Sequence record: OL362273.1
Length of the DNA: 44,371 bases
Direction: 5' to 3' (one strand)
DNA from: Escherichia phage 6949
Shown: piece by piece, positions 3,723-31,905 of the stretch
Position numbering within the stretch: position 1 is the first letter of the stretch
Layout: each line of letters begins with the position of its first letter
Position numbers and translations under genes: made by a program
Notes under the pieces: model-generated
What the model was told of the DNA's origin: nothing
Seen by the model: only the letters and a program-made list of their open reading frames with translations
The model's database searches: none

Positions 3723-3936
3723 GTTTCTAGAAGTTCTGGCAGGTCTTATTGGCCTGCTTATTTCTGCTAAGAAGAAACAAGAAGAGAAGGAGGCACAAAG
3801 TGAAGCGAATCATGTTAGTGACAACCCTGCTGATTGGTTCGCTGACCACTTCCGGGTGTCAGCAGGCGTTACCAGAGAAAGCAATGGTGAAACCTCTGAG
3901 GCCGACGCTGACGGAAGTTTACGAGGTAGACGATAA
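3715..3936 (+). CDS. Putative i-spanin-like ORF (weak)
   Basis: A GTG-start ORF with an N-terminal hydrophobic segment (FLEVLAGLIGLLISA) followed by a charged region. It overlaps the o-spanin candidate in another frame. Both the start codon and the membrane topology are uncertain. Confidence 0.25.
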   Translation: MNKFLEVLAGLIGLLISAKKKQEEKEAQSEANHVSDNPADWFADHFRVSAGVTRESNGETSEADADGSLRGRR

Positions 3937-4009
3937 GGTCTGCTTTAGTAAGCCTGACGCTACAAAATTAGGTTTGTATATTCTTTCGCTAGAACGAGGG
4001 TATAATTAA
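3812..4009 (+). CDS. Putative o-spanin (Rz1-like outer-membrane lipoprotein)
   Basis: ATG 3812 opens MLVTTLLIGSLTTSGC, a signal peptide with a lipobox-like TSGC, followed by a Pro-rich mature region. It overlaps the preceding ORF in another frame, as Rz/Rz1 pairs do. Confidence 0.5.
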   Translation: MLVTTLLIGSLTTSGCQQALPEKAMVKPLRPTLTEVYEVDDKVCFSKPDATKLGLYILSLERGYN

Positions 4010-4038
4010 TACATAGCTTTATGTATCAGTGTCTTACG

Positions 4039-4061
4039 ATTTACTGGACACTATAGAAGAG
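4039..4061 (+). promoter_or_regulatory. SP6-type phage promoter upstream of tailspike 1
   Basis: ATTTACTGGACACTATA followed by GAAGAG, with the predicted +1 G at 4056. A leader hairpin lies at 4072-4089. Confidence 0.8.
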
Positions 4062-4140
4062 GTAAGATAGCGCCGTTCTTTTGAGCGGCCTATTACTAGC
4101 CAATCTTCATAGGGAGGGTTGGAAAGTAATAGGAGATAGC

Positions 4141-6039
4141 ATGGCTAAATTAACCAAACCTAATACTGAAGGAATCTTGCATAAAGGACAATCTTTGTAT
4201 GAGTACCTTGATGCGAGAGTTTTAACATCAAAGCCGTTTGGTGCTGCAGGTGACGCCACTACTGATGATACGGAGGTTATAGCTGCTTCATTAAACTCTC
4301 AGAAAGCTGTCACAGTCTCAGATGGTGTATTCTCTAGCTCTGGTATTAATAGTAATTACTGTAATTTAGACGGTAGGGGCAGTGGCGTGCTAAGTCACCG
4401 TTCCAGTACAGGTAACTACTTAGTATTTAACAATCTACGTGCAGGTCGCTTAAGTAATATTACGGTAGAAAGTAATAAGGAGACTGATACAACTCAGGGA
4501 CAGCAGGTATCTCTTGCTGGTGGAAGTGATGTTACTGTAAGTGACGTTAACTTCTCAAACGTTAAAGGTACTGGTTTCAGTTTAATCGCATACCCTAATG
4601 ATGCGCCACCTGATGGACTTATGATTAAAGGCATTCGAGGTAGCTATTCAGGCTATGCTACTAATAAGGCAGCCGGATGCGTACTTGCTGACTCCTCAGT
4701 TAACTCCCTCATAGATAACGTCATTGCTAAGAACTACCCTCAGTTCGGAGCAGTAGAGTTGAAAAGTACAGCCAGTTACAACATAGTCAGTAATGTTATA
4801 GGGGCAGATTGCCAGCATGTAACTTACAACGGCACTGAAGGGCCAATAGCCCCTTCTAATAACCTTATCAAGGGGGTGATGGCTAATAACCCTAAGTATG
4901 CAGCGGTTGTTGCAGGCAAAGGAAGTACGAACTTAATCTCAGACGTGCTCGTAGATTACTCAACTTCTGATGCTAGGCAGGCTCATGGTGTTACCGTAGA
5001 AGGGTCTGATAACGTCATAAATAATGTGCTTATGTCAGGATGTGATGGTACTAACTCTTTAGGACAAGGGCAGACTTCTACAATTGCACGCTTTATAGGT
5101 ACAGCTAATAACAACTATGCGTCTGTATTTCCTAGCTACAGTGCTACAGGTGTTATTACTTTCGAATCCGGCTCTACCCGTAACTTCGTAGAGGTAAAGC
5201 ACCCTGGCAGGAGAAACGACCTTCTCAGTTCTGCTAGTACTATTGACGGTGCAGCTACTATTGACGGCACTAATAATAGTAACGTAGTGCACGCACCTGC
5301 CTTAGGGCAGTACATAGGTAGTATGTCAGGTAGGTTCGAATGGCGGATTAAGTCCATGTCACTCCCTTCAGGAGTTCTTACTTCTGCTGATAAGTACAGA
5401 ATGCTTGGGGATGGTGCTGTATCATTAGCTTTAGGTGGGGGTACTTCTTCTCAAGTTCGCCTATTTACTTCTGATGGTGCTTCTCGGACAGTGTCCCTCA
5501 CCAACGGTAACGTGCGTCTTTCTACCAGTAGCACAGGCTATTTGCAGTTAGGTGCTGATGCAATGACCCCAGATAGTACTGGTACATACGCATTAGGTTC
5601 CGCCAGTCGAGCATGGTCTGGCGGTTTTACTCAAGCAGCATTCACTGTTACCTCAGATGCTCGGTGTAAAACAGAACCTCTTACTATCTCAGATGCCTTA
5701 CTGGATGCTTGGTCTGAAGTTGACTTTGTGCAGTTTCAGTATTTGGATCGTGTTGAGGAGAAGGGTGCAGACTCAGCTAGATGGCACTTCGGTATCATCG
5801 CTCAGCGAGCTAAGGAGGCTTTCGAACGTCACGGTATAGATGCACATCGCTATGGCTTCTTGTGCTTCGACAGTTGGGATGATGTATACGAGGAAGATGC
5901 CAATGGCTCTCGTAAACTGATTACACCAGCAGGTTCCCGCTACGGTATTCGTTACGAGGAAGTACTGATATTAGAGGCTGCGTTGATGCGGAGGACTATC
6001 AAGCGTATGCAGGAAGCACTAGCTTCCCTGCCTAAGTGA
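4141..6039 (+). CDS. Tailspike 1: beta-helix depolymerase with C-terminal intramolecular chaperone (peptidase S74-like) domain
   Basis: ATG 4141 follows RBS AGGAGA; the track start at 4081 is a TTG. The C-terminus carries SDARCK and HFGIIAQRAKEAF motifs, which are typical of auto-cleaving chaperone domains of endosialidase and K5-lyase type tailspikes. A phage promoter lies upstream and a terminator downstream. Confidence 0.8.
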   Translation: MAKLTKPNTEGILHKGQSLYEYLDARVLTSKPFGAAGDATTDDTEVIAASLNSQKAVTVSDGVFSSSGINSNYCNLDGRGSGVLSHRSSTGNYLVFNNLRAGRLSNITVESNKETDTTQGQQVSLAGGSDVTVSDVNFSNVKGTGFSLIAYPNDAPPDGLMIKGIRGSYSGYATNKAAGCVLADSSVNSLIDNVIAKNYPQFGAVELKSTASYNIVSNVIGADCQHVTYNGTEGPIAPSNNLIKGVMANNPKYAAVVAGKGSTNLISDVLVDYSTSDARQAHGVTVEGSDNVINNVLMSGCDGTNSLGQGQTSTIARFIGTANNNYASVFPSYSATGVITFESGSTRNFVEVKHPGRRNDLLSSASTIDGAATIDGTNNSNVVHAPALGQYIGSMSGRFEWRIKSMSLPSGVLTSADKYRMLGDGAVSLALGGGTSSQVRLFTSDGASRTVSLTNGNVRLSTSSTGYLQLGADAMTPDSTGTYALGSASRAWSGGFTQAAFTVTSDARCKTEPLTISDALLDAWSEVDFVQFQYLDRVEEKGADSARWHFGIIAQRAKEAFERHGIDAHRYGFLCFDSWDDVYEEDANGSRKLITPAGSRYGIRYEEVLILEAALMRRTIKRMQEALASLPK

Positions 6040-9660: not shown

Positions 9661-9811
9661 GGTAAAGGCTGGCACTAGTCAGCCTATCAAGGCGCAAACC
9701 AAGCTCTTTAACAATTTGGATGGTAGCTTCTTAGTCTGGATAGGTTAAACCTAGGAGATTCTCTTGAGTCTCCTATAATGTAACCTAACTAACTAAATGA
9801 GGATTAACAAC

Positions 9812-10171
9812 ATGGCTATGTCTAATATGACTTACTCTCAGGTTTACAACACTGCTCATGCTGCATTAGTTGAACGTATCTGGAATGATGCTATTGATTG
9901 TATTGATAACGCACATGATGCAATCCATGATGCGGCGGATAGTGCTGTACCAATCTATTATGCTGACATCTTCTCCGTGATGGCGAGTGAAGGAATTGAT
10001 CATTTCTTCGAAGACTCCGGCCTGATGCCAGACACTAAGGATGTAACCGTAGTATTGCAAGCCCGTATCTATGAGCAACTCACAGTTGATCTATGGGAAC
10101 GTGTTCAGTATATGATTGTTGAATACGTCAACTCCGCCGAATATTTAGAAAAAGAAGAAGAGGAAGAATAA
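9812..10171 (+). CDS. ocr: Ocr (T7 gp0.3-like DNA mimic, anti-restriction)
   Basis: The translation from ATG 9812 is MAMSNMTY...[41 protein letters not shown]...[15 protein letters not shown] with an acidic tail. These blocks match my recollection of T7 Ocr. RBS AGGA lies upstream. Confidence 0.85.
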
Positions 10172-20880: not shown

Positions 20881-20939
20881 GTTATACTCAAGGTCACTTA
20901 CGAGTGGCCTTTATGAATAACTTAACTGGAGGAAATATA

Positions 20940-21497
20940 ATGAATGAACTGAACACTAAGATGCTCAAGAAAGTTTATAATCTTGTATATAGTATCACGG
21001 GCCTACAATTCTACCCTGTAGGCGGTGCGGTTCGTGACACCCTGTACGGATTAACACCTAAAGACTATGATATGGTGTTGCCTGTAGGGTCTATGGCAGA
21101 TTCTCAGGCGCACGAAATCATGGAAAATATCTCTGAAGAGATGGCAATTATGGGATTTAGTACCAAACTCTACCAATCATACGGTATCAATTTAGGTTAT
21201 GAAATCAACCCTACCTCTTTTCAGGCTATGTTCCTTAGCTGCATGAAAGTGCAGATGCGTAATTGCCAACTTGATTTGCTTCTTTCTAAGGCTGAAACCA
21301 TCCAAGATCATGTACGTAAGCACGATTGCAATATGAATATGGTGTGGTTCGATGGTAAAGATATCAAGTGGGAGCACGGCGGTGTTACTCCTTTCGTTCC
21401 TGTGTTAGAGTTCAACCCTGACGGATGTGATCGTCGCATTGCTTACATGGACAAGAAGCGCCATGAACTTATCCGTCACAAATTAATGCATCTTTGA
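20940..21497 (+). CDS. Minimal nucleotidyltransferase, CCA-adding enzyme / poly(A) polymerase head-domain-like
   Basis: RBS GGAGGA lies 6 nt upstream of ATG 20940. The motif FYPVGGAVRDTLYGLTPKDYDMVL matches the class II tRNA nucleotidyltransferase signature GGxVRD...D.D. At 185 aa it has no room for the usual body and tail domains. Confidence 0.65.
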   Translation: MNELNTKMLKKVYNLVYSITGLQFYPVGGAVRDTLYGLTPKDYDMVLPVGSMADSQAHEIMENISEEMAIMGFSTKLYQSYGINLGYEINPTSFQAMFLSCMKVQMRNCQLDLLLSKAETIQDHVRKHDCNMNMVWFDGKDIKWEHGGVTPFVPVLEFNPDGCDRRIAYMDKKRHELIRHKLMHL

Positions 21498-24849: not shown

Positions 24850-25244
24850 AATCATCGGAGGTAGCAGCTTATAAGAGGGAATTGCTAGAGAAGCAAGGAT
24901 GGAAGTGCCCCCTATGTGGCGGCAGTCTCAAGGCTGTTACTCCTATAAACCGTGTACTTGACCATGACCATGAGACAGGATTCTGCCGTGCTGTTGTATG
25001 CCGAGGCTGCAATGGTGCAGAAGGAAAGATTAAGGGTGTTATCTCTGGTTATGGTAAGGCTGGTAACAACCGTTACTTCCAGCTTCAATGGTTAGAGCGA
25101 CTATATGAATACTGGAAGTTACATAGTACGCCTCAGACAGATAAGTTATATCACAAACACCAAACGGAGGCAGAGAAGCGCGAGGCTAAGAACCGTAAGG
25201 CACGCCTTGCTTATGCAAGAAAGAAGGAGGTTAAAGTTGGGTAA
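24834..25244 (+). CDS. Endonuclease VII-like Holliday junction resolvase
   Basis: The motif CPLCGG...LDHDHETG...RAVVCRGCNGAEG matches the T4 endonuclease VII zinc/HNH-like core (C.IC...LDHDHE...RGLLC.LCN.AEG). Confidence 0.8.
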   Translation: MVSKLKSSEVAAYKRELLEKQGWKCPLCGGSLKAVTPINRVLDHDHETGFCRAVVCRGCNGAEGKIKGVISGYGKAGNNRYFQLQWLERLYEYWKLHSTPQTDKLYHKHQTEAEKREAKNRKARLAYARKKEVKVG

Positions 25245-26244
25245 GCTTCGCAGCTTGTACAAAGACTCCGAGGTACTTGATGCAATCGAGCAAGCTACCG
25301 ACGAGAAAGGTAATGTTAATTACAATGAGATGGCACGTGTATTATCGTGTCACCCTGTGGGTAAGAAGATTACCCGCCAGTTGGCTCGATACTGGCATGG
25401 TCAATTCAAGAAGACCAAGAAGAATGGTGATTATTACCAGACCCTTCTGCAAGAAGATAAGCGTATCAAAGAAGAGCGTAAGCTCAGGACTCCTGACCGC
25501 TACGAGGATTTGGCTATTGTGCCATTGCCTGACTCGCCTCATCGAAGTGTACTGGTGATCCCTGATACTCATGCACCTTATGAGCACCCAGATACCCTAG
25601 AGTTCCTTGCAGCCGTGGCAGCACGTTACCGTCCAGACACAGTGGTACACCTAGGAGATGAGGCAGACAAACATGCCTTGTCATTCCACGATTCGGACCC
25701 AAATCTGGATAGTGCTGGAATGGAGTTAGAGAAGGCTCGTATCTTCATGCACAAATTGCACAAGATGTTCCCTGTGATGCGCCTATGTCACTCCAACCAC
25801 GGCTCTATGCACTTCCGTAAGGCAAGCGCCAAGGGTATTCCAGTGCAATATCTTCGCACCTACCGTGAAGTCTTCTTCCCAAATGGAGGTGGCGACCAGT
25901 GGGATTGGCAGCATACACATGTTCTTGAGTTGCCGAATGGCGAACAGGTGGCATTCAAGCATCAACCTGCTGGCTCTGTCCTAGCAGATGCAGCGCATGA
26001 GCGTATGAACCTTGTGTGTGGTCACTTGCACGGTAAGATGTCTGTGGAGTACGCACGTAATACACATGAACAGTATTGGGCTGTGCAAGGTGGCTGCTTA
26101 ATTGATGAGTCATCCCGTGCATTTGCCTATGGGCGTGAGTCTAAATACAAGCCAGCATTAGGTTGTGTGGTTATTCTGGAGGGTGTACCTCATATTGTCC
26201 CGATGCAAACCAATAGCGACAACCGTTGGATTGGCAAGATTTAG
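25237..26244 (+). CDS. Calcineurin-like metallophosphoesterase
   Basis: The ordered motifs are PDTH (DxH), HLGDEAD (GDxxD), SNHG (GNH-like) and GHLHG (GHxH). I prefer the TTG start at 25237 because it follows RBS AAGGAGGT; the longer track ORF from 25105 overlaps the endonuclease VII gene. Confidence 0.7.
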   Translation: MGKLRSLYKDSEVLDAIEQATDEKGNVNYNEMARVLSCHPVGKKITRQLARYWHGQFKKTKKNGDYYQTLLQEDKRIKEERKLRTPDRYEDLAIVPLPDSPHRSVLVIPDTHAPYEHPDTLEFLAAVAARYRPDTVVHLGDEADKHALSFHDSDPNLDSAGMELEKARIFMHKLHKMFPVMRLCHSNHGSMHFRKASAKGIPVQYLRTYREVFFPNGGGDQWDWQHTHVLELPNGEQVAFKHQPAGSVLADAAHERMNLVCGHLHGKMSVEYARNTHEQYWAVQGGCLIDESSRAFAYGRESKYKPALGCVVILEGVPHIVPMQTNSDNRWIGKI

Positions 26245-26261
26245 TTGACACTATAGAACAA
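26239..26261 (+). promoter_or_regulatory. SP6-type phage promoter
   Basis: ATTTAGTTGACACTATA followed by GAACAA, which is very close to the canonical SP6 promoter. Confidence 0.8.
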
Positions 26262-26344
26262 AGGGCTAGATAAGACTTTATCGGCTGGCGTATCCAAATG
26301 ATATTGCACTAGCCCTTGATTGTATAGTGAATGGAGGATTCAAT

Positions 26345-26848
26345 ATGTCACACTATGAATGTAAGAAGTGTCATAAGCGTTATGATTACTGTACTTGTGG
26401 TCAAGAGAAAACATCTTTTAAAGTTGGAGACAAGGTATTTCGTAATGAAAAAGATTCTATTCCTTGGAATCAATTCTGCAAAGAAGCTGGTATTGACCCT
26501 GATAGCCCTGTAACCATAGATGATATTGATGGCATTAACTTGTGCTTTCGTGAGGTGAGGGGTACAGGTTGGGATTCCAAAAAATTCAAACTTGCATCTG
26601 ATAAGTTAGACAACAATATGGTAACTCAGCCTAAGCACTACGAGTTCTTTGATGGTGTAGAGGCAATCACTATCATTGCCCGCAGTATGACTGAAAAGCA
26701 ATTCGCTGGGTACTGCATGGGTAATACCCTTAAGTATCGCCTGCGTGCAGGTAAGAAGTTCAATACTGAAGAAGACTTGAAGAAGGCAGACTATTATAAA
26801 GAGTTATTCCAGAAGCATCGTCACGAATGTATTGATGAGGATATTTAA
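26345..26848 (+). CDS. Hypothetical protein with N-terminal Cys cluster and a conserved phage domain of unknown function
   Basis: ATG 26345 follows RBS GGAGGA; the track start is a GTG. The N-terminus has CKKCHKRYDYCTC, and the C-terminal block reads PKHYEFFDGVEAITII....F..YCMGNTLKYRLRAGKK. Confidence 0.6.
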   Translation: MSHYECKKCHKRYDYCTCGQEKTSFKVGDKVFRNEKDSIPWNQFCKEAGIDPDSPVTIDDIDGINLCFREVRGTGWDSKKFKLASDKLDNNMVTQPKHYEFFDGVEAITIIARSMTEKQFAGYCMGNTLKYRLRAGKKFNTEEDLKKADYYKELFQKHRHECIDEDI

Positions 26849-26849
26849 T

Positions 26850-27023
26850 ATGGAAGGTAAACTGTATAGAGGGTACTTCGGTAACTTATATAAAGTAAGC
26901 TCTCGCGGTTTTGTATTGACCTCTGATGATGAAGGTGCAATGTGGCACCTAAGTGCATATGGTTCTAACTTAGCACACTTTAAAGAGGCAATAGTCAAAG
27001 GTGTGATGAAGGAGGTGAAATGA
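26850..27023 (+). CDS. Small hypothetical protein (57 aa)
   Basis: ATG 26850 is coupled to the upstream stop and is in frame within track ORF 26832-27023. Confidence 0.45.
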   Translation: MEGKLYRGYFGNLYKVSSRGFVLTSDDEGAMWHLSAYGSNLAHFKEAIVKGVMKEVK

Positions 27024-27967
27024 ACATCTTCCAATTCCTAGGTCTTCCAGAAGACCACCGCAATCATCCATTCATGCTGGTGAAGCATCGCGGTGAAGTT
27101 CCTGAGAAGAAATTAACTTTTCCATGTTATGCACAGGTGAAACGAGATGGAATATTCAGTGCTGTTGTGGTGCGTAATGATGGTGTTGTTGCCATCTTTG
27201 GTCGTACTGGTAAGAAGCTCGCAAATGTTGAAGCCTTGGAAAAGACATTTAGTGTATTTCCTGTCGGGTTGTATCTTGGTGAGTTGCAATCTATGGCTGT
27301 TGATGTTTATCTTGAAGCTCTGTCAGGAGTGGTAAACCCTAATCGTACAGAGCCACTTGATTTCATAGGGCAGCAGATTAAAGACAACCTATATATCGAC
27401 TTCTTCGATATGTTAACCATTAAGGCATTCCATGATGGATTCACTGATGTTTCTTATCTCAAACGTTACGATGCTTTACATCGTCGCATCGGCACTCATC
27501 TTAGCGGGTACAACGCTATTCTTCCTATTACTCCTTGCCATAATGAGCGAGAGGTTGAAGCGTTTGCTCAAGAGCAAATAGATGCAGGCAGAGAAGGTGC
27601 GGTATTTAAACTTGACGTGGAGTACGAAAGTGGGCACAAGGGCTATCGTCAAACGAAGATTGTTCGTATGGTATCTTATGACCTCACCTGCATTGGGTGG
27701 GAGGAAGGAAAAGGTAAGTATAAAGGTAAAGTAGCTAATTTAATCTTTAAATGGAAAGGTGGTAAGTCCGTTAAGGCTATGCTGGGGCGTGGCTGGTCAC
27801 ATGAGGATGCAGCACAGATGTATCACGATATTAAGCACGGTGGCGAACTAAACGTCATTGGGAAAATCTTCGCTGTTAAGGCGTTACAGGAATCTAGTAA
27901 GGGAGTCCTGAGACTCCCCAAGGTTTCTGAACTTAGGTTTGATAAGGAAGTCCCTGATGTCTTCTAA
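27020..27967 (+). CDS. ATP-dependent DNA ligase (T7 gp1.3-like)
   Basis: RBS AAGGAGGTG precedes the ATG. The adenylation motif I is present as KRDG (AQVKRDGIFSAV), together with EGAVFK. The size fits phage ligases. Confidence 0.9.
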   Translation: MNIFQFLGLPEDHRNHPFMLVKHRGEVPEKKLTFPCYAQVKRDGIFSAVVVRNDGVVAIFGRTGKKLANVEALEKTFSVFPVGLYLGELQSMAVDVYLEALSGVVNPNRTEPLDFIGQQIKDNLYIDFFDMLTIKAFHDGFTDVSYLKRYDALHRRIGTHLSGYNAILPITPCHNEREVEAFAQEQIDAGREGAVFKLDVEYESGHKGYRQTKIVRMVSYDLTCIGWEEGKGKYKGKVANLIFKWKGGKSVKAMLGRGWSHEDAAQMYHDIKHGGELNVIGKIFAVKALQESSKGVLRLPKVSELRFDKEVPDVF

Positions 27968-28442
27968 TCCAAATTATCGAAAACCACCTCGTACACCGCC
28001 AAGACCACTTGCCTACTGTCCTTTTACTGGAAAGCTTTTCCGTAAGTTCAAAGATGGCTGGAGAGAAACAGGACTTAGCAGAAAGAGTGATGGATATTTA
28101 CAGTATAAAGTCGATGGTAAGACTGTAAGTGTTCATGTTTTAGCAATGAATATGATGGGTTATGACACTACCGGCTTTACAGTAGATCACATAAATCATA
28201 TACGCTGGGATAATAGGTTTATTAATCTACGTCTACTATCTCATAAAGATAATTGTTTAAATAGAGAGGCGATACATACAAGTAAGCTGCCGAGTGGTAA
28301 CTACAGAGCGCGATGTGGAAATGTTCATCTTGGCGTATTTGAGGATAAGTTACTTGCTCGTGGTGCTATCCTATGGTATCGCCATAGGAGATTTAATAAT
28401 GTTAAATTCAATGAAGGCAACGCGTGCCGTAGAAGTAGCTGA
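27957..28442 (+). CDS. HNH homing endonuclease
   Basis: The motif SVHVLAMNMMGYDTTGFTVDHINHIRWDNRFINLRLLSHKDN is an HNH signature. The ORF overlaps both neighbours, as a compact insertion would. Confidence 0.8.
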   Translation: MSSNPNYRKPPRTPPRPLAYCPFTGKLFRKFKDGWRETGLSRKSDGYLQYKVDGKTVSVHVLAMNMMGYDTTGFTVDHINHIRWDNRFINLRLLSHKDNCLNREAIHTSKLPSGNYRARCGNVHLGVFEDKLLARGAILWYRHRRFNNVKFNEGNACRRSS

Positions 28443-28593
28443 AGCTATATTTGAAACTTTATCCTGTGGCATGGAAGTGCCATATACTTTACTGGCTGAT
28501 GCAGAAGAACTTGGTCTTTCTGTAGAAGCTATCCAAGAGAAGGTTGACGAATTATATGGTACAGACGAAGAAGAAACCGACGATTTCATTTGA
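28399..28593 (+). CDS. Small acidic hypothetical protein (64 aa)
   Basis: RBS AGGAG lies 8 nt upstream of ATG 28399. The C-terminus is acidic (EEETDDFI). The 5' end overlaps the HNH gene. Confidence 0.45.
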   Translation: MLNSMKATRAVEVAEAIFETLSCGMEVPYTLLADAEELGLSVEAIQEKVDELYGTDEEETDDFI

Positions 28594-28597
28594 AGGA

Positions 28598-28726
28598 ATG
28601 GAGATGCTTGAGATGATTCTCAAGCCTTCTTCTCCTAAGGTGACTAAGACTCATGAAGAGTTAATCGTTGATGAGGTTAAGCGTTACATCATGGATTGTG
28701 TCAGAGCACAACTGGTGATCCAATGA
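28598..28726 (+). CDS. Small hypothetical ORF (start uncertain)
   Basis: Several in-frame ATGs (28598, 28604, 28613) lie near a GAAGGA/GGAG RBS. The stop overlaps the GNAT start (ATGA). Confidence 0.3.
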   Translation: MEMLEMILKPSSPKVTKTHEELIVDEVKRYIMDCVRAQLVIQ

Positions 28727-29184
28727 TACGTCCAGCTTCCTTCCTAGATATTCCTGAGATTATAAACCTTGGGAATAAATATGTGGAAGAGGAAGTCAAG
28801 GTTGTAGCCCACCACTCAGCCTCATGGAATGCAGAACAAAGTGCACATAACCTTTGTGCATCTCTTAGTAGAGAAGATTTATTCCTATGGGTTGCTGTAG
28901 ATGAAGGGCAGATTGTAGGGTTCCTGTGGGCTGGCTATCACGAGTTGGCCCCTTGGACACCTGTAAGAGTTGCCTCTGACATTCTCTTTTATATTATACC
29001 AGAGAGGCGAGGAACACTTCTTGGTATGCGTCTCATCAAAGCCCTAAAGCAATGGGCTAGTGATAATGAATGCTCTGAGGTTCGCCTGTCTATCGCCTCT
29101 GGTATTAATGAAGAACGTGTCGGACGTATGTATAAGCGACTTGGCTTTGAACCGTTTGGCACTGTGTATAACATGAAGTTCTAA
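28723..29184 (+). CDS. GNAT family N-acetyltransferase
   Basis: The acetyl-CoA binding motif A is present (QIVGFLWAG ... RRGTLLGMRLIKALKQWA), followed by the RLGFEP motif. ATG 28723 is coupled to the upstream stop. Confidence 0.72.
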   Translation: MIRPASFLDIPEIINLGNKYVEEEVKVVAHHSASWNAEQSAHNLCASLSREDLFLWVAVDEGQIVGFLWAGYHELAPWTPVRVASDILFYIIPERRGTLLGMRLIKALKQWASDNECSEVRLSIASGINEERVGRMYKRLGFEPFGTVYNMKF

Positions 29185-29193
29185 GGAGATAAC

Positions 29194-29403
29194 ATGGGTG
29201 TTGTAAAGAAAGCATTTAAGGCTATCGGTCTTGCTCAAGATGCACCACGTATTGAAGCCAAAGTACCAGCACAGCAGCTTGAGCGTAAGCCTGAGACTGA
29301 AGCTGAAGATATTCAAATTGGTGCAGGTGGTGATGATGCGACTGCATCTGCAAAAGGTAAGCGCGGCCTTGTCCGTCCGGTAGCTTCTAGCTTGAAGGTG
29401 TAA
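29194..29403 (+). CDS. Small Gly/Ala-rich protein upstream of portal (possible minor virion protein)
   Basis: RBS AAGGAG precedes the ATG. It is position-equivalent to the small head proteins of T7 (the 6.7/7.3 region). The assignment is by position only. Confidence 0.45.
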   Translation: MGVVKKAFKAIGLAQDAPRIEAKVPAQQLERKPETEAEDIQIGAGGDDATASAKGKRGLVRPVASSLKV

Positions 29404-29404
29404 T

Positions 29405-30955
29405 ATGAAACAGAGCACAGATTTGGAGTATGGAGGTAAGCGGTCTAAGATACCTAAGCTATGGGAGAAATTCTCCACTAAACGTAGCTCTTTCCTTGAT
29501 AGGGCGAAGCATTACTCCAAATTAACCTTGCCCTATCTGATGAATGACAAAGGTGATAACGAGACTTCGCAGAATGGATGGCAAGGTGTAGGTGCTCAGG
29601 CAACCAACCATCTAGCCAACAAGCTAGCGCAAGTACTATTCCCTGCACAGCGTTCCTTCTTCCGTGTAGACTTAACTGCACAAGGTGAGAAGGTTCTTAA
29701 TCAGCGTGGCCTGAAGAAGACAGAGCTAGCTACCATCTTCGCTCAAGTGGAAACACGGGCAATGAAAGAGTTAGAGCAACGTCAATTCCGACCTGCTGTA
29801 GTAGAAGCATTTAAGCATCTTATTGTTGCTGGCAGCTGTATGCTATACAAGCCGAGCAAAGGTGCAATCAGTGCTATCCCAATGCATCACTACGTAGTTA
29901 ACCGTGATACCAATGGCGACCTGTTAGACATTATCTTGCTACAAGAGAAAGCCTTACGTACCTTTGACCCAGCTACACGTGCTGTAGTAGAGGTTGGCCT
30001 GAAAGGTAAGAAGTGCAAAGAAGATGACAGCGTTAAGCTGTACACACATGCTAAGTATCTTGGTGATGGATTTTGGGAACTCAAGCAATCTGCTGATGAT
30101 ATCCCTGTGGGTAAGGTGAGTAAAATCAAATCAGAAAAGCTACCTTTCATCCCATTAACTTGGAAGCGAAGCTATGGTGAGGATTGGGGTCGCCCTCTTG
30201 CAGAGGATTACTCCGGTGATTTATTCGTTATCCAATTCTTATCTGAAGCGGTTGCCCGTGGTGCTGCGCTGATGGCAGATATCAAGTACCTGATTCGTCC
30301 GGGTGCTCAAACTGATGTTGACCACTTTGTTAACTCTGGCACTGGTGAGGTTATCACTGGTGTAGAAGAAGACATCCATATTGTACAGTTAGGTAAGTAT
30401 GCAGATCTCACACCCATTAGCGCGGTTCTAGAGGTATACACTCGCCGTATCGGTGTTGTCTTCATGATGGAGACAATGACACGCCGTGACGCCGAACGTG
30501 TTACTGCTGTAGAAATCCAGCGAGATGCGTTAGAGATTGAGCAGAACATGGGTGGTGTATACTCCCTCTTTGCTACTACTATGCAATCGCCAGTAGCGAT
30601 GTGGGGTCTGCTGGAGGCAGGGGAGTCCTTCACTAGTGACCTAGTGGACCCTGTGATTATCACAGGTATTGAAGCTTTAGGACGCATGGCTGAGTTGGAT
30701 AAACTGGCTAACTTTGCTCAGTATATGTCACTGCCATTACAATGGCCTGAGCCTGTCCTAGCTGCTGTGAAATGGCCTGACTATATGGATTGGGTGCGTG
30801 GTCAAATCTCTGCTGAACTGCCGTTCCTTAAATCAGCTGAAGAGATGGCACAAGAACAGGAAGCACAGATGCAAGCACAGCAAGCACAGATGCTTGAAGA
30901 AGGTGTGGCTAAGGCCGTGCCGGGTGTAATTCAACAAGAACTTAAGGAGGCGTAA
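29405..30955 (+). CDS. Head-tail connector (portal) protein (T7 gp8-like)
   Basis: A 516 aa ORF in the gp8 position, immediately upstream of scaffold and capsid. Its C-terminus is acidic and Gln-rich. Confidence 0.88.
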   Translation: MKQSTDLEYGGKRSKIPKLWEKFSTKRSSFLDRAKHYSKLTLPYLMNDKGDNETSQNGWQGVGAQATNHLANKLAQVLFPAQRSFFRVDLTAQGEKVLNQRGLKKTELATIFAQVETRAMKELEQRQFRPAVVEAFKHLIVAGSCMLYKPSKGAISAIPMHHYVVNRDTNGDLLDIILLQEKALRTFDPATRAVVEVGLKGKKCKEDDSVKLYTHAKYLGDGFWELKQSADDIPVGKVSKIKSEKLPFIPLTWKRSYGEDWGRPLAEDYSGDLFVIQFLSEAVARGAALMADIKYLIRPGAQTDVDHFVNSGTGEVITGVEEDIHIVQLGKYADLTPISAVLEVYTRRIGVVFMMETMTRRDAERVTAVEIQRDALEIEQNMGGVYSLFATTMQSPVAMWGLLEAGESFTSDLVDPVIITGIEALGRMAELDKLANFAQYMSLPLQWPEPVLAAVKWPDYMDWVRGQISAELPFLKSAEEMAQEQEAQMQAQQAQMLEEGVAKAVPGVIQQELKEA

Positions 30956-31882: not shown

Positions 31883-31905
31883 TTTACTGGACACTATAGA
31901 AGGGA
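31883..31905 (+). promoter_or_regulatory. SP6-type phage promoter for the capsid gene (phi10 analog)
   Basis: ATTTACTGGACACTATA followed by GAAGGG, with the predicted +1 G at 31900. A leader stem-loop GGGAGAA-AAG-TTCTCCC follows at 31902-31918. Confidence 0.85.

Follow-up and report, generated by a model that had tools for sequence, protein, structure and literature searches.

In this study, we show that the open reading frame at positions 27957-28442 (plus strand) of the window, that is, of the whole 44,371-nucleotide stretch analyzed here (OL362273.1, Escherichia phage 6949), is a free-standing gene for an HNH protein of 161 amino acid residues (ATG start, stop codon included in the coordinates), forming a separate reading frame between two intact genes. 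Judged by its sequence, the protein belongs to the I-HmuI-like HNH_3 group of homing endonucleases, and it is probable that the locus is a free-standing homing endonuclease gene, made up of an I-HmuI-like HNH_3 domain and a short, possibly AP2-like domain, that occupies the slot between the ligase gene and gp25. The best reading is that of a homing element which is active or was so recently, cleavage and homing being what we infer. The gene is a previously unannotated addition to a well-known kind of homing endonuclease, and no description of it was found in the published literature on K1E, K1-5, SP6, and Vectrevirus. The same gene at the same position in phage EEc2 (EEc2_0030, URP75078.1) was deposited as a 'hypothetical protein', and the copies in OZ035798 and OZ035807 are unannotated.

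Gene setting and expression

The window represents an essentially complete genome, in a rotated arrangement, of a K1-5/K1E-like Vectrevirus (Autographiviridae, Molineuxvirinae), and the best match among the 86 phage records found with a 3.2-kb query around the HNH gene is Vectrevirus LI10P3 (OZ035798, 98.9%). The left flank is an ATP-dependent DNA ligase gene (27020-27967, plus strand; Pfam DNA_ligase_A_M and DNA_ligase_OB_2) and the right flank is a conserved 64-aa gene (28399-28593, plus strand; phrog_5860), the homolog of K1-5 gp25, beyond which lie a 42-aa gene, a GNAT acetyltransferase gene (28723-29184), and the portal gene. Both flanking genes are full length compared with those of relatives. 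The initial annotation had described a free-standing HNH gene wedged after the ligase, overlapping the ligase gene by 11 nt and the 64-aa gene by 44 nt; this description is borne out by the coordinates of both overlaps, by matches to Pfam HNH_3 and phrog_99, by the intact flanks, and by the absence of any intron or other RNA family match in 26000-30000 (Rfam, E ≤ 1). The last two findings rule out an intron- or intein-encoded endonuclease. The two family matches, together with conserved homologs under purifying selection, indicate that the reading frame is not a chance one. There is no second copy of the gene in the window, the gene itself being the sole tblastn match at E ≤ 10. The GC content of the gene (0.37-0.39 vs. 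0.43-0.46 in the flanks) was considered as a mark of foreign origin and dropped, because other stretches of small genes in the window are just as low.

It appears from the arrangement of signals that the HNH gene is expressed within a transcription unit extending from the ligase to the portal gene, and that translational coupling is probably involved. Sites resembling promoters of the phage RNA polymerase (TACYGGACACTATAG type) number 14 against 1.25 expected. The nearest one upstream (TAGTTGACACTATAG) is at 26242-26256 (plus strand) and the next one downstream is at 31885, so that none adjoins the HNH gene, and sigma-70-like and terminator-like sites in 26000-30000 are at chance level with no enrichment. 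A Shine-Dalgarno-like AAGGAAG lies in the 3' end of the ligase gene (27944-27950, plus strand), 6 nt before the HNH ATG, and would act as the ribosome-binding site of the HNH gene; in HNH-less alleles, AAGGAGG at the same site precedes whichever gene comes after the ligase. At the other end, the 3' end of the HNH gene contains AGGAG (28386-28390) followed after 8 nt by an ATG (28386-28401 as a whole, plus strand), which provides a replacement start for the 64-aa gene. The N-terminus of the 64-aa protein reads MLNS-MKATR in the window vs. MSFDS-MKATR or MNQISFDS-MKATR in HNH-less alleles.

The predicted protein and its family

The protein matches Pfam HNH_3 (PF13392) at residues 59-99 with 35.5 bits against a cut-off of 24.8 (E = 7.5e-9) and the PHROGs family phrog_99 'HNH endonuclease' with E = 2.5e-26. 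The catalytic core so defined lies at 28131-28253 (plus strand), with D77-H78 at 28185-28190 and N90 and N99 downstream. These four residues are invariant across a seven-sequence alignment of the family and pair with D74, H75, N87, and N96 of I-HmuI (1U3E), residues with catalytic and metal-binding roles in that enzyme, in an alignment that is marginal (phmmer E = 0.63). As the sequence search of solved structures returned I-HmuI alone, at this same marginal E of 0.63, a comparison of folds was needed. An AlphaFold model made from the shallow alignment of seven sequences has a mean pLDDT of 77.6, with values below 50 confined to the first 4 and the last 14 residues. The predicted structure has the beta-beta-alpha-metal fold of the His-Me finger endonucleases, and its closest structural match is the homing endonuclease I-HmuI. 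The C-terminus (residues ~104-147; 28266-28397, plus strand) is modeled as a beta-beta-beta-helix domain that is possibly an AP2-like DNA-binding module; the likeness is based on structure and alignment, includes a 10-residue deletion, and is accompanied by no match to Pfam AP2 (PF00847).

The wider superfamily is large (4141 cluster representatives at E ≤ 1e-3) and the close subfamily small (3 at E ≤ 1e-30; 6 proteins at E ≤ 1e-5 in a collection clustered at 90%). Homologs in the family end in ...RFNNV* and overlap the next gene by 8 nt. In the window, this usual stop has been lost, and 12 poorly modeled codons run on into the next gene, so that the 44-nt overlap is specific to this lineage. 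In EEc2_0030, a change at position 28440 makes 4 residues of this C-terminal tail different. The lost stop and the predicted disorder of the 12-codon tail may hint at some decay.

I-HmuI is an HNH nicking homing endonuclease of Bacillus phage SPO1, encoded inside a group I intron of the DNA polymerase gene, and its C-terminal domain is a helix-turn-helix. The gene described here differs from it in being free-standing between genes with no intron and in its short, possibly AP2-like C-terminus. The combination of HNH-3 and AP2 is a recognized architecture of homing endonucleases in ICP1 and other phages (Barth, Dunham, & Seed, 2023, PMC10448857). With these the gene shares the N-terminal HNH-3, possibly the C-terminal AP2-type domain, and an exchange boundary beside essential genes; it differs from them in host and phage lineage and in that AP2 is assigned here by structure and alignment, with a 10-residue deletion. 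Among free-standing genes, homing with co-conversion of an HNH endonuclease is established for mobE of phage T4 (PMC2790892), and the Seg and Mob genes of T4 lie between conserved genes of DNA metabolism, occur sporadically, co-convert their flanks, and cause marker exclusion (PMC2790892, PMC2988022). Like MobE and Seg, the gene in the window is wedged between conserved genes, is sporadic, and has a linked block of flanking sequence (27739-28452) as expected of co-conversion. Unlike them, it belongs to an SP6-like podovirus, has no promoter of its own that we found, and is translationally nested at both ends.

Alleles of the slot and the linked flanking block

The initial annotation had proposed that the interval from ligase to GNAT be compared with that of relatives. 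In this comparison HNH-less alleles are the rule and the boundaries of the exchanged segment can be defined (27739-28452), the gene being carried by 3 of the 86 related phage records (EEc2, OZ035798, and OZ035807, at 99% nucleotide identity) rather than by all of them. It is thus missing from about 97% of close relatives. The DNA of the gene itself (431 nt) was matched in four phage records, namely the same three at 99% and Klebsiella phage ZK1 at 68%, whereas the ligase is encoded by 204 records, 103 of them at ≥80% identity. Among 35 ligase loci from IMG/VR, a homolog is present at one (L034, ZK1-like). The HNH-less OZ035735 was even deposited under the species name of the carriers OZ035798 and OZ035807. 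EEc2 carries the gene in a different background, which lacks a 170-bp cassette found at 26850-27019 of the window.

The HNH-less alleles, which include those of VEc3, EEc4, K1-5, K1E, and OZ035735, are of two main forms. In the compact form (EEc4, K1-5, and most IMG/VR loci), gp25 overlaps the end of the ligase gene directly and the gap from ligase to GNAT is ~320 nt. In the cassette form (17 records, among them VEc3, K1E, and OZ035735), an unrelated 125-bp insert with a 41-aa ORF fills the same slot and the gap is 448 nt, so that the nearest HNH-less alleles are not 'empty'. The possibility that the 41-aa cassette of VEc3 is a degraded HNH gene was rejected, as it shows neither similarity to the HNH gene nor a family match. 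The overlaps had been taken in the initial annotation as the sign of a compact selfish insertion, of which they are not diagnostic in themselves. In HNH-less relatives the next gene also overlaps the ligase (by 29 nt in K1-5 and 20 nt in EEc4), and the 41-aa ORF of VEc3 begins at the same ATG as the HNH gene with the same 11-nt overlap, so that overlapping the ligase is characteristic of the slot and not of the HNH gene; the 44-nt overlap, as described above, is lineage-specific.

The HNH gene is part of a haplotype block of 714 bp (27739-28452), delimited by linkage of variable sites, which contains the gene, ~218-229 bp of the 3' end of the ligase gene, and ~55 bp of the 64-aa gene, and which we regard as a putative co-conversion tract. 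Linkage was compared in an alignment of six genomes, with the carriers (the window, OZ035798, OZ035807, and EEc2) on one side and the HNH-less OZ035735 and VEc3 on the other. All variable sites in 27739-28452 separate the four carriers from the two HNH-less genomes, whereas polymorphisms at or before 27691 and from 28459 onward assort independently of the HNH gene. OZ035798 (HNH+) and OZ035735 (HNH-) have just 2 mismatches over the 1.35 kb of 26353-27700 and 4 over the 0.87 kb of 28460-29328, and this near-identity on both sides identifies 27739-28452 as the segment exchanged. Within the block, differences in the ligase gene are mostly synonymous and are densest at 27932-27971. At the other end, the 64-aa gene has 9 HNH-linked synonymous third-position changes at 28422-28452 (plus strand), past which no change occurs until 28675 relative to OZ035735 or until 28633 relative to VEc3. 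Of the 45 loci compared, only the Vectrevirus carriers have the states ACG, GTA, GAA, and ATA in this stretch. The stretch 28422-28452 is a candidate for the target or for a region of self-immunity, or may be the mere end of a conversion tract, and together with the ligase/gp25 junction and 27932-27971 it is one of the candidate regions for the cleavage site.

Carriers outside Vectrevirus are arranged differently. SP6-like and Klebsiella-phage carriers lack the private recoding of 28422-28452, and their downstream flank is identical to that of HNH-less alleles. The cassette of the Klebsiella-phage lineage ends immediately in front of the gp25 ATG, and the HNH+ and HNH- alleles of this lineage differ in the last ~45 nt of the ligase gene alone. 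A target-site duplication was also considered, as the junctions share the 7-nt AATYCAA; a match of this kind was equaled in 1925 of 2000 shuffles, which leaves it with no statistical support. That the left junction looks like the 'empty' junction is explained for the most part by the conserved C-terminus of the ligase.

Pairs of carriers diverge by 0.3-1.1% in the block vs. 1.5-2.6% in the surrounding 3.3-3.5 kb, and this lower divergence is significant in the three carrier pairs that exclude the window (Fisher p = 5e-5 to 5e-4). It fits a block that has spread recently among different backgrounds, and the block looks like a conversion tract that would have carried the gene together with its flanks. 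The linkage is supportive of co-conversion, not proof of it, and is compatible with ordinary recombination as well: Vectrevirus genomes are mosaic in general, as exemplified by another block, 25638-25986, in which OZ035798 and OZ035735 differ although no nuclease gene adjoins it, and 27739-28452 could have the same kind of origin.

History of the gene and proposed homing

The closer homologs all lie directly after the ligase gene of SP6-like phages, usually overlapping it, and represent five further lineages with 44-80% amino acid identity to the protein of the window: L043 (78-80%), ZK1 with L034 and L044 (65-69%), L045 and L046 (57%), L051-53 (51%), and L050, which has a ligase fragment upstream (44-47%). 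In the same interval, the relatives L018, L043, and L051 also have neighboring endonuclease genes, a further parallel to the HNH-3 and AP2 enzymes of ICP1 and other phages. A paralog of 46% identity occurs elsewhere, with a T7-type RNA polymerase gene downstream of it. The ZK1-like lineage (L034 and L044, compared with L033 and L035-37) and the L043 lineage (compared with L026, L027, and L029) are those for which the sample included loci that have a similar ligase but no HNH gene, and on the evidence of these loci the homologs are sporadic. The pN/pS of the HNH gene is 0.20-0.39 vs. 0.15-0.49 for the ligase, pN/pS being given instead of dN/dS because synonymous sites are saturated (pS 0.73-0.84); these values, similar to those of the ligase, indicate that the protein has been kept functional. 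In our reading, the HNH family is an old resident of the same slot across the Molineuxvirinae which has spread recently within Vectrevirus. The recent horizontal transfer postulated in the initial annotation is thus upheld within Vectrevirus and is not upheld for the gene family, which is old in this position.

It is conceivable that the gene is an old accessory gene of the Molineuxvirinae that is inherited vertically, is immobile, and has been lost repeatedly, in which case its patchiness and the linked block would be products of deletion and general recombination. The identity of the HNH protein roughly tracks that of the ligase and GNAT in most lineages (78/83/73%, 68/68/66%, and 57/49%), as this explanation would have it, and both the mosaic blocks that have no nuclease and the loss of the normal stop with its disordered tail agree with it. 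However, L051 is discordant, with a ligase of 78% identity but an HNH protein of 51% (both are 68% in ZK1), which speaks in favor of transfer between lineages, at least to some extent, and carriers of different backgrounds are more alike in the block than in its flanks. Moreover, a selfish gene that has neither benefit nor drive is expected to decay, whereas here purifying selection has held over a saturated synonymous divergence and the catalytic residues are invariant. We consider this explanation unlikely for these reasons. An HNH protein that aids the terminase in packaging, as in HK97-like cos phages, was rejected and has next to no likelihood in our estimation. Membership of the HNH superfamily in a tailed phage is all that speaks for it, and to our knowledge packaging of the T7/SP6 type has no HNH requirement. 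The initial annotation had already discounted this role on account of the distance from the terminase, correctly so: the genes of the small and large subunits (134-478 and 475-2376) are ~25 kb away in the window, and the gene, which an HK97 gp74-like function would place beside the terminase and conserve across the phage group, is lacking from most Vectrevirus and other relatives, which are viable. Its top structural match is also to a homing endonuclease, I-HmuI.

The long-term purifying selection on the gene might alternatively reflect a domesticated or dual-use nuclease that benefits the phage by interference with co-infecting relatives or by local recombination or amplification. Homing endonucleases of phages do act in competition between viruses (PMC11620839) and in the amplification of anti-defense loci (PMC13096335). 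On the other hand, about 97% of close relatives, which are viable isolates, do without the gene, and the genes of the neighborhood give no sign of defense or anti-defense in Pfam and PHROGs, so that we hold such a role to be quite improbable as the explanation of the locus. A dual use is compatible with homing and could exist in addition to it, without replacing it.

We favor homing, which may proceed as follows. Transcription of the gene would start at the phage promoter at 26242, as part of the ligase operon, and translation would use the ribosome site that lies within the 3' end of the ligase gene. In a mixed infection, the protein would nick (as I-HmuI does) or cut the ligase/gp25 junction of HNH-less genomes, or a site near it, and recombinational repair from an HNH+ genome would transfer a copy of the gene, together with its flanks (27739-28452), to the recipient, the outcome of such homing with co-conversion being a local marker exclusion. 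The carrier's own genome would escape cleavage because its junction is split by the insertion, because the flanks are recoded (27932-27971 and 28422-28452), or both. Since the 3' end of the cassette brings a new Shine-Dalgarno sequence and ATG, the downstream gene would stay expressed. A more far-reaching proposal, which is possible though doubtful, is that one endonuclease lineage has held the slot where ligase stop and gp25 start overlap in at least six Molineuxvirinae lineages by taking over both the ribosome site and the start codon of the downstream gene and supplying a replacement Shine-Dalgarno sequence and ATG at its own 3' end, that the Vectrevirus carriers protect themselves by the recoding of 28422-28452, and that the slot is a hot spot of exchange. 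If this were true, the recognition site would be located precisely by the private changes at 28422-28452, in a part of gp25 that is otherwise highly conserved (its start), and the slot, which also takes the 41-aa cassette, would be an exchange hot spot for the engineering of K1-specific therapeutic phages.

These findings make no conceptual addition to the biology of homing endonucleases. They do provide a natural pair of HNH+ and HNH- genomes, near-identical on both sides of a 714-bp tract, in which the target site and co-conversion are directly testable. Vectreviruses such as K1-5, K1E, and their relatives are employed, and also engineered, for phage therapy against capsulated E. coli. For these phages, the HNH gene marks a slot in which insertions are tolerated, and a mobile nuclease that overwrites the region from ligase to gp25 would bias both phage cocktails and recombination-based engineering.

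The ligase/gp25 junction

The slot between the ligase gene and gp25, a conserved 64-aa gene homologous to gp25 of K1-5, takes at least two different inserts, because the position of the putative HNH homing endonuclease gene (27957-28442) is occupied exactly, in the HNH-less relative VEc3, by a 125-bp cassette carrying a 41-aa ORF (2158-2283 of its locus, L002). This cassette is unrelated to the HNH gene and is found in VEc3, OZ035735 and K1E (17 phage records), and a family match sought for the 41-aa ORF of VEc3 gave none. The ORF begins at the same ATG as the HNH gene, 11 nt within the ligase end, and on its 3' side the cassette supplies its own AGGAGG and ATG, which serve gp25.

At the 3' end of the HNH gene, the stop codon usual for the subfamily, following RFNNV, is gone in the Vectrevirus copies (28408-28442 in the window). 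This loss gives a 12-codon read-through tail into gp25, predicted with a pLDDT below 50, and in the HNH carrier EEc2 a change at 28440 makes the tail four residues longer still. The subfamily is also exemplified at another site by a paralogue, 46% identical, which overlaps a T7-type RNA polymerase gene and lies immediately upstream of it in two loci (L054, 291-701; L055, 337-747).

Nucleotide conservation at the start of gp25

Across the HNH-less alleles among 45 loci compared, synonymous positions are unusually conserved in the first ~16 codons of gp25 past its MKATR motif (28411-28460). This holds even for alleles whose ligase identity is no more than 68-90%; nearly all of the HNH-less alleles, for instance, have GAG at 28432-28434. 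Such conservation of synonymous positions hints that the nucleotide sequence itself is constrained, for example as the target of a nuclease or as a signal in the RNA or for translation.

Polymorphism and other genes in the window

A second small indel polymorphism beside ligase is a 170-bp cassette on its 5' side (26850-27019), flanked on the other side by the DUF3310 gene; the ORF at 26832-27023 encodes a 63-aa protein, phrog_15259. The window, VEc3, EEc4 and the OZ0357xx genomes carry the cassette; EEc2 and K1-5 lack it. In the phosphoesterase gene (25105-26244), OZ035798 is set apart from OZ035735 and OZ035807 by a mosaic block in which substitutions are dense (25638-25986); no nuclease gene adjoins it, which shows that these phages recombine block by block as a general rule. 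Elsewhere, the ocr DNA-mimic anti-restriction gene is clearly matched at 9797-10171 (E 2.2e-41), and a 197-aa ORF at 20904-21497 has a borderline match to the PolyA_pol head domain, a nucleotidyltransferase (E 8.6e-5, 23.3 versus 23 bits).

Endonuclease genes around the Endo VII-to-portal interval

Different HNH-type genes occur nearby in related phages: between gp25 and the 42-aa gene that follows it in L018 (1169-1597), between Endo VII and phosphoesterase in L043 (1132-1569), and in L051 both before Endo VII at the left end and between the small genes and the GNAT gene (3758-4165). In the Molineuxvirinae, the stretch from Endo VII to portal has the look of a hot spot for endonuclease genes.
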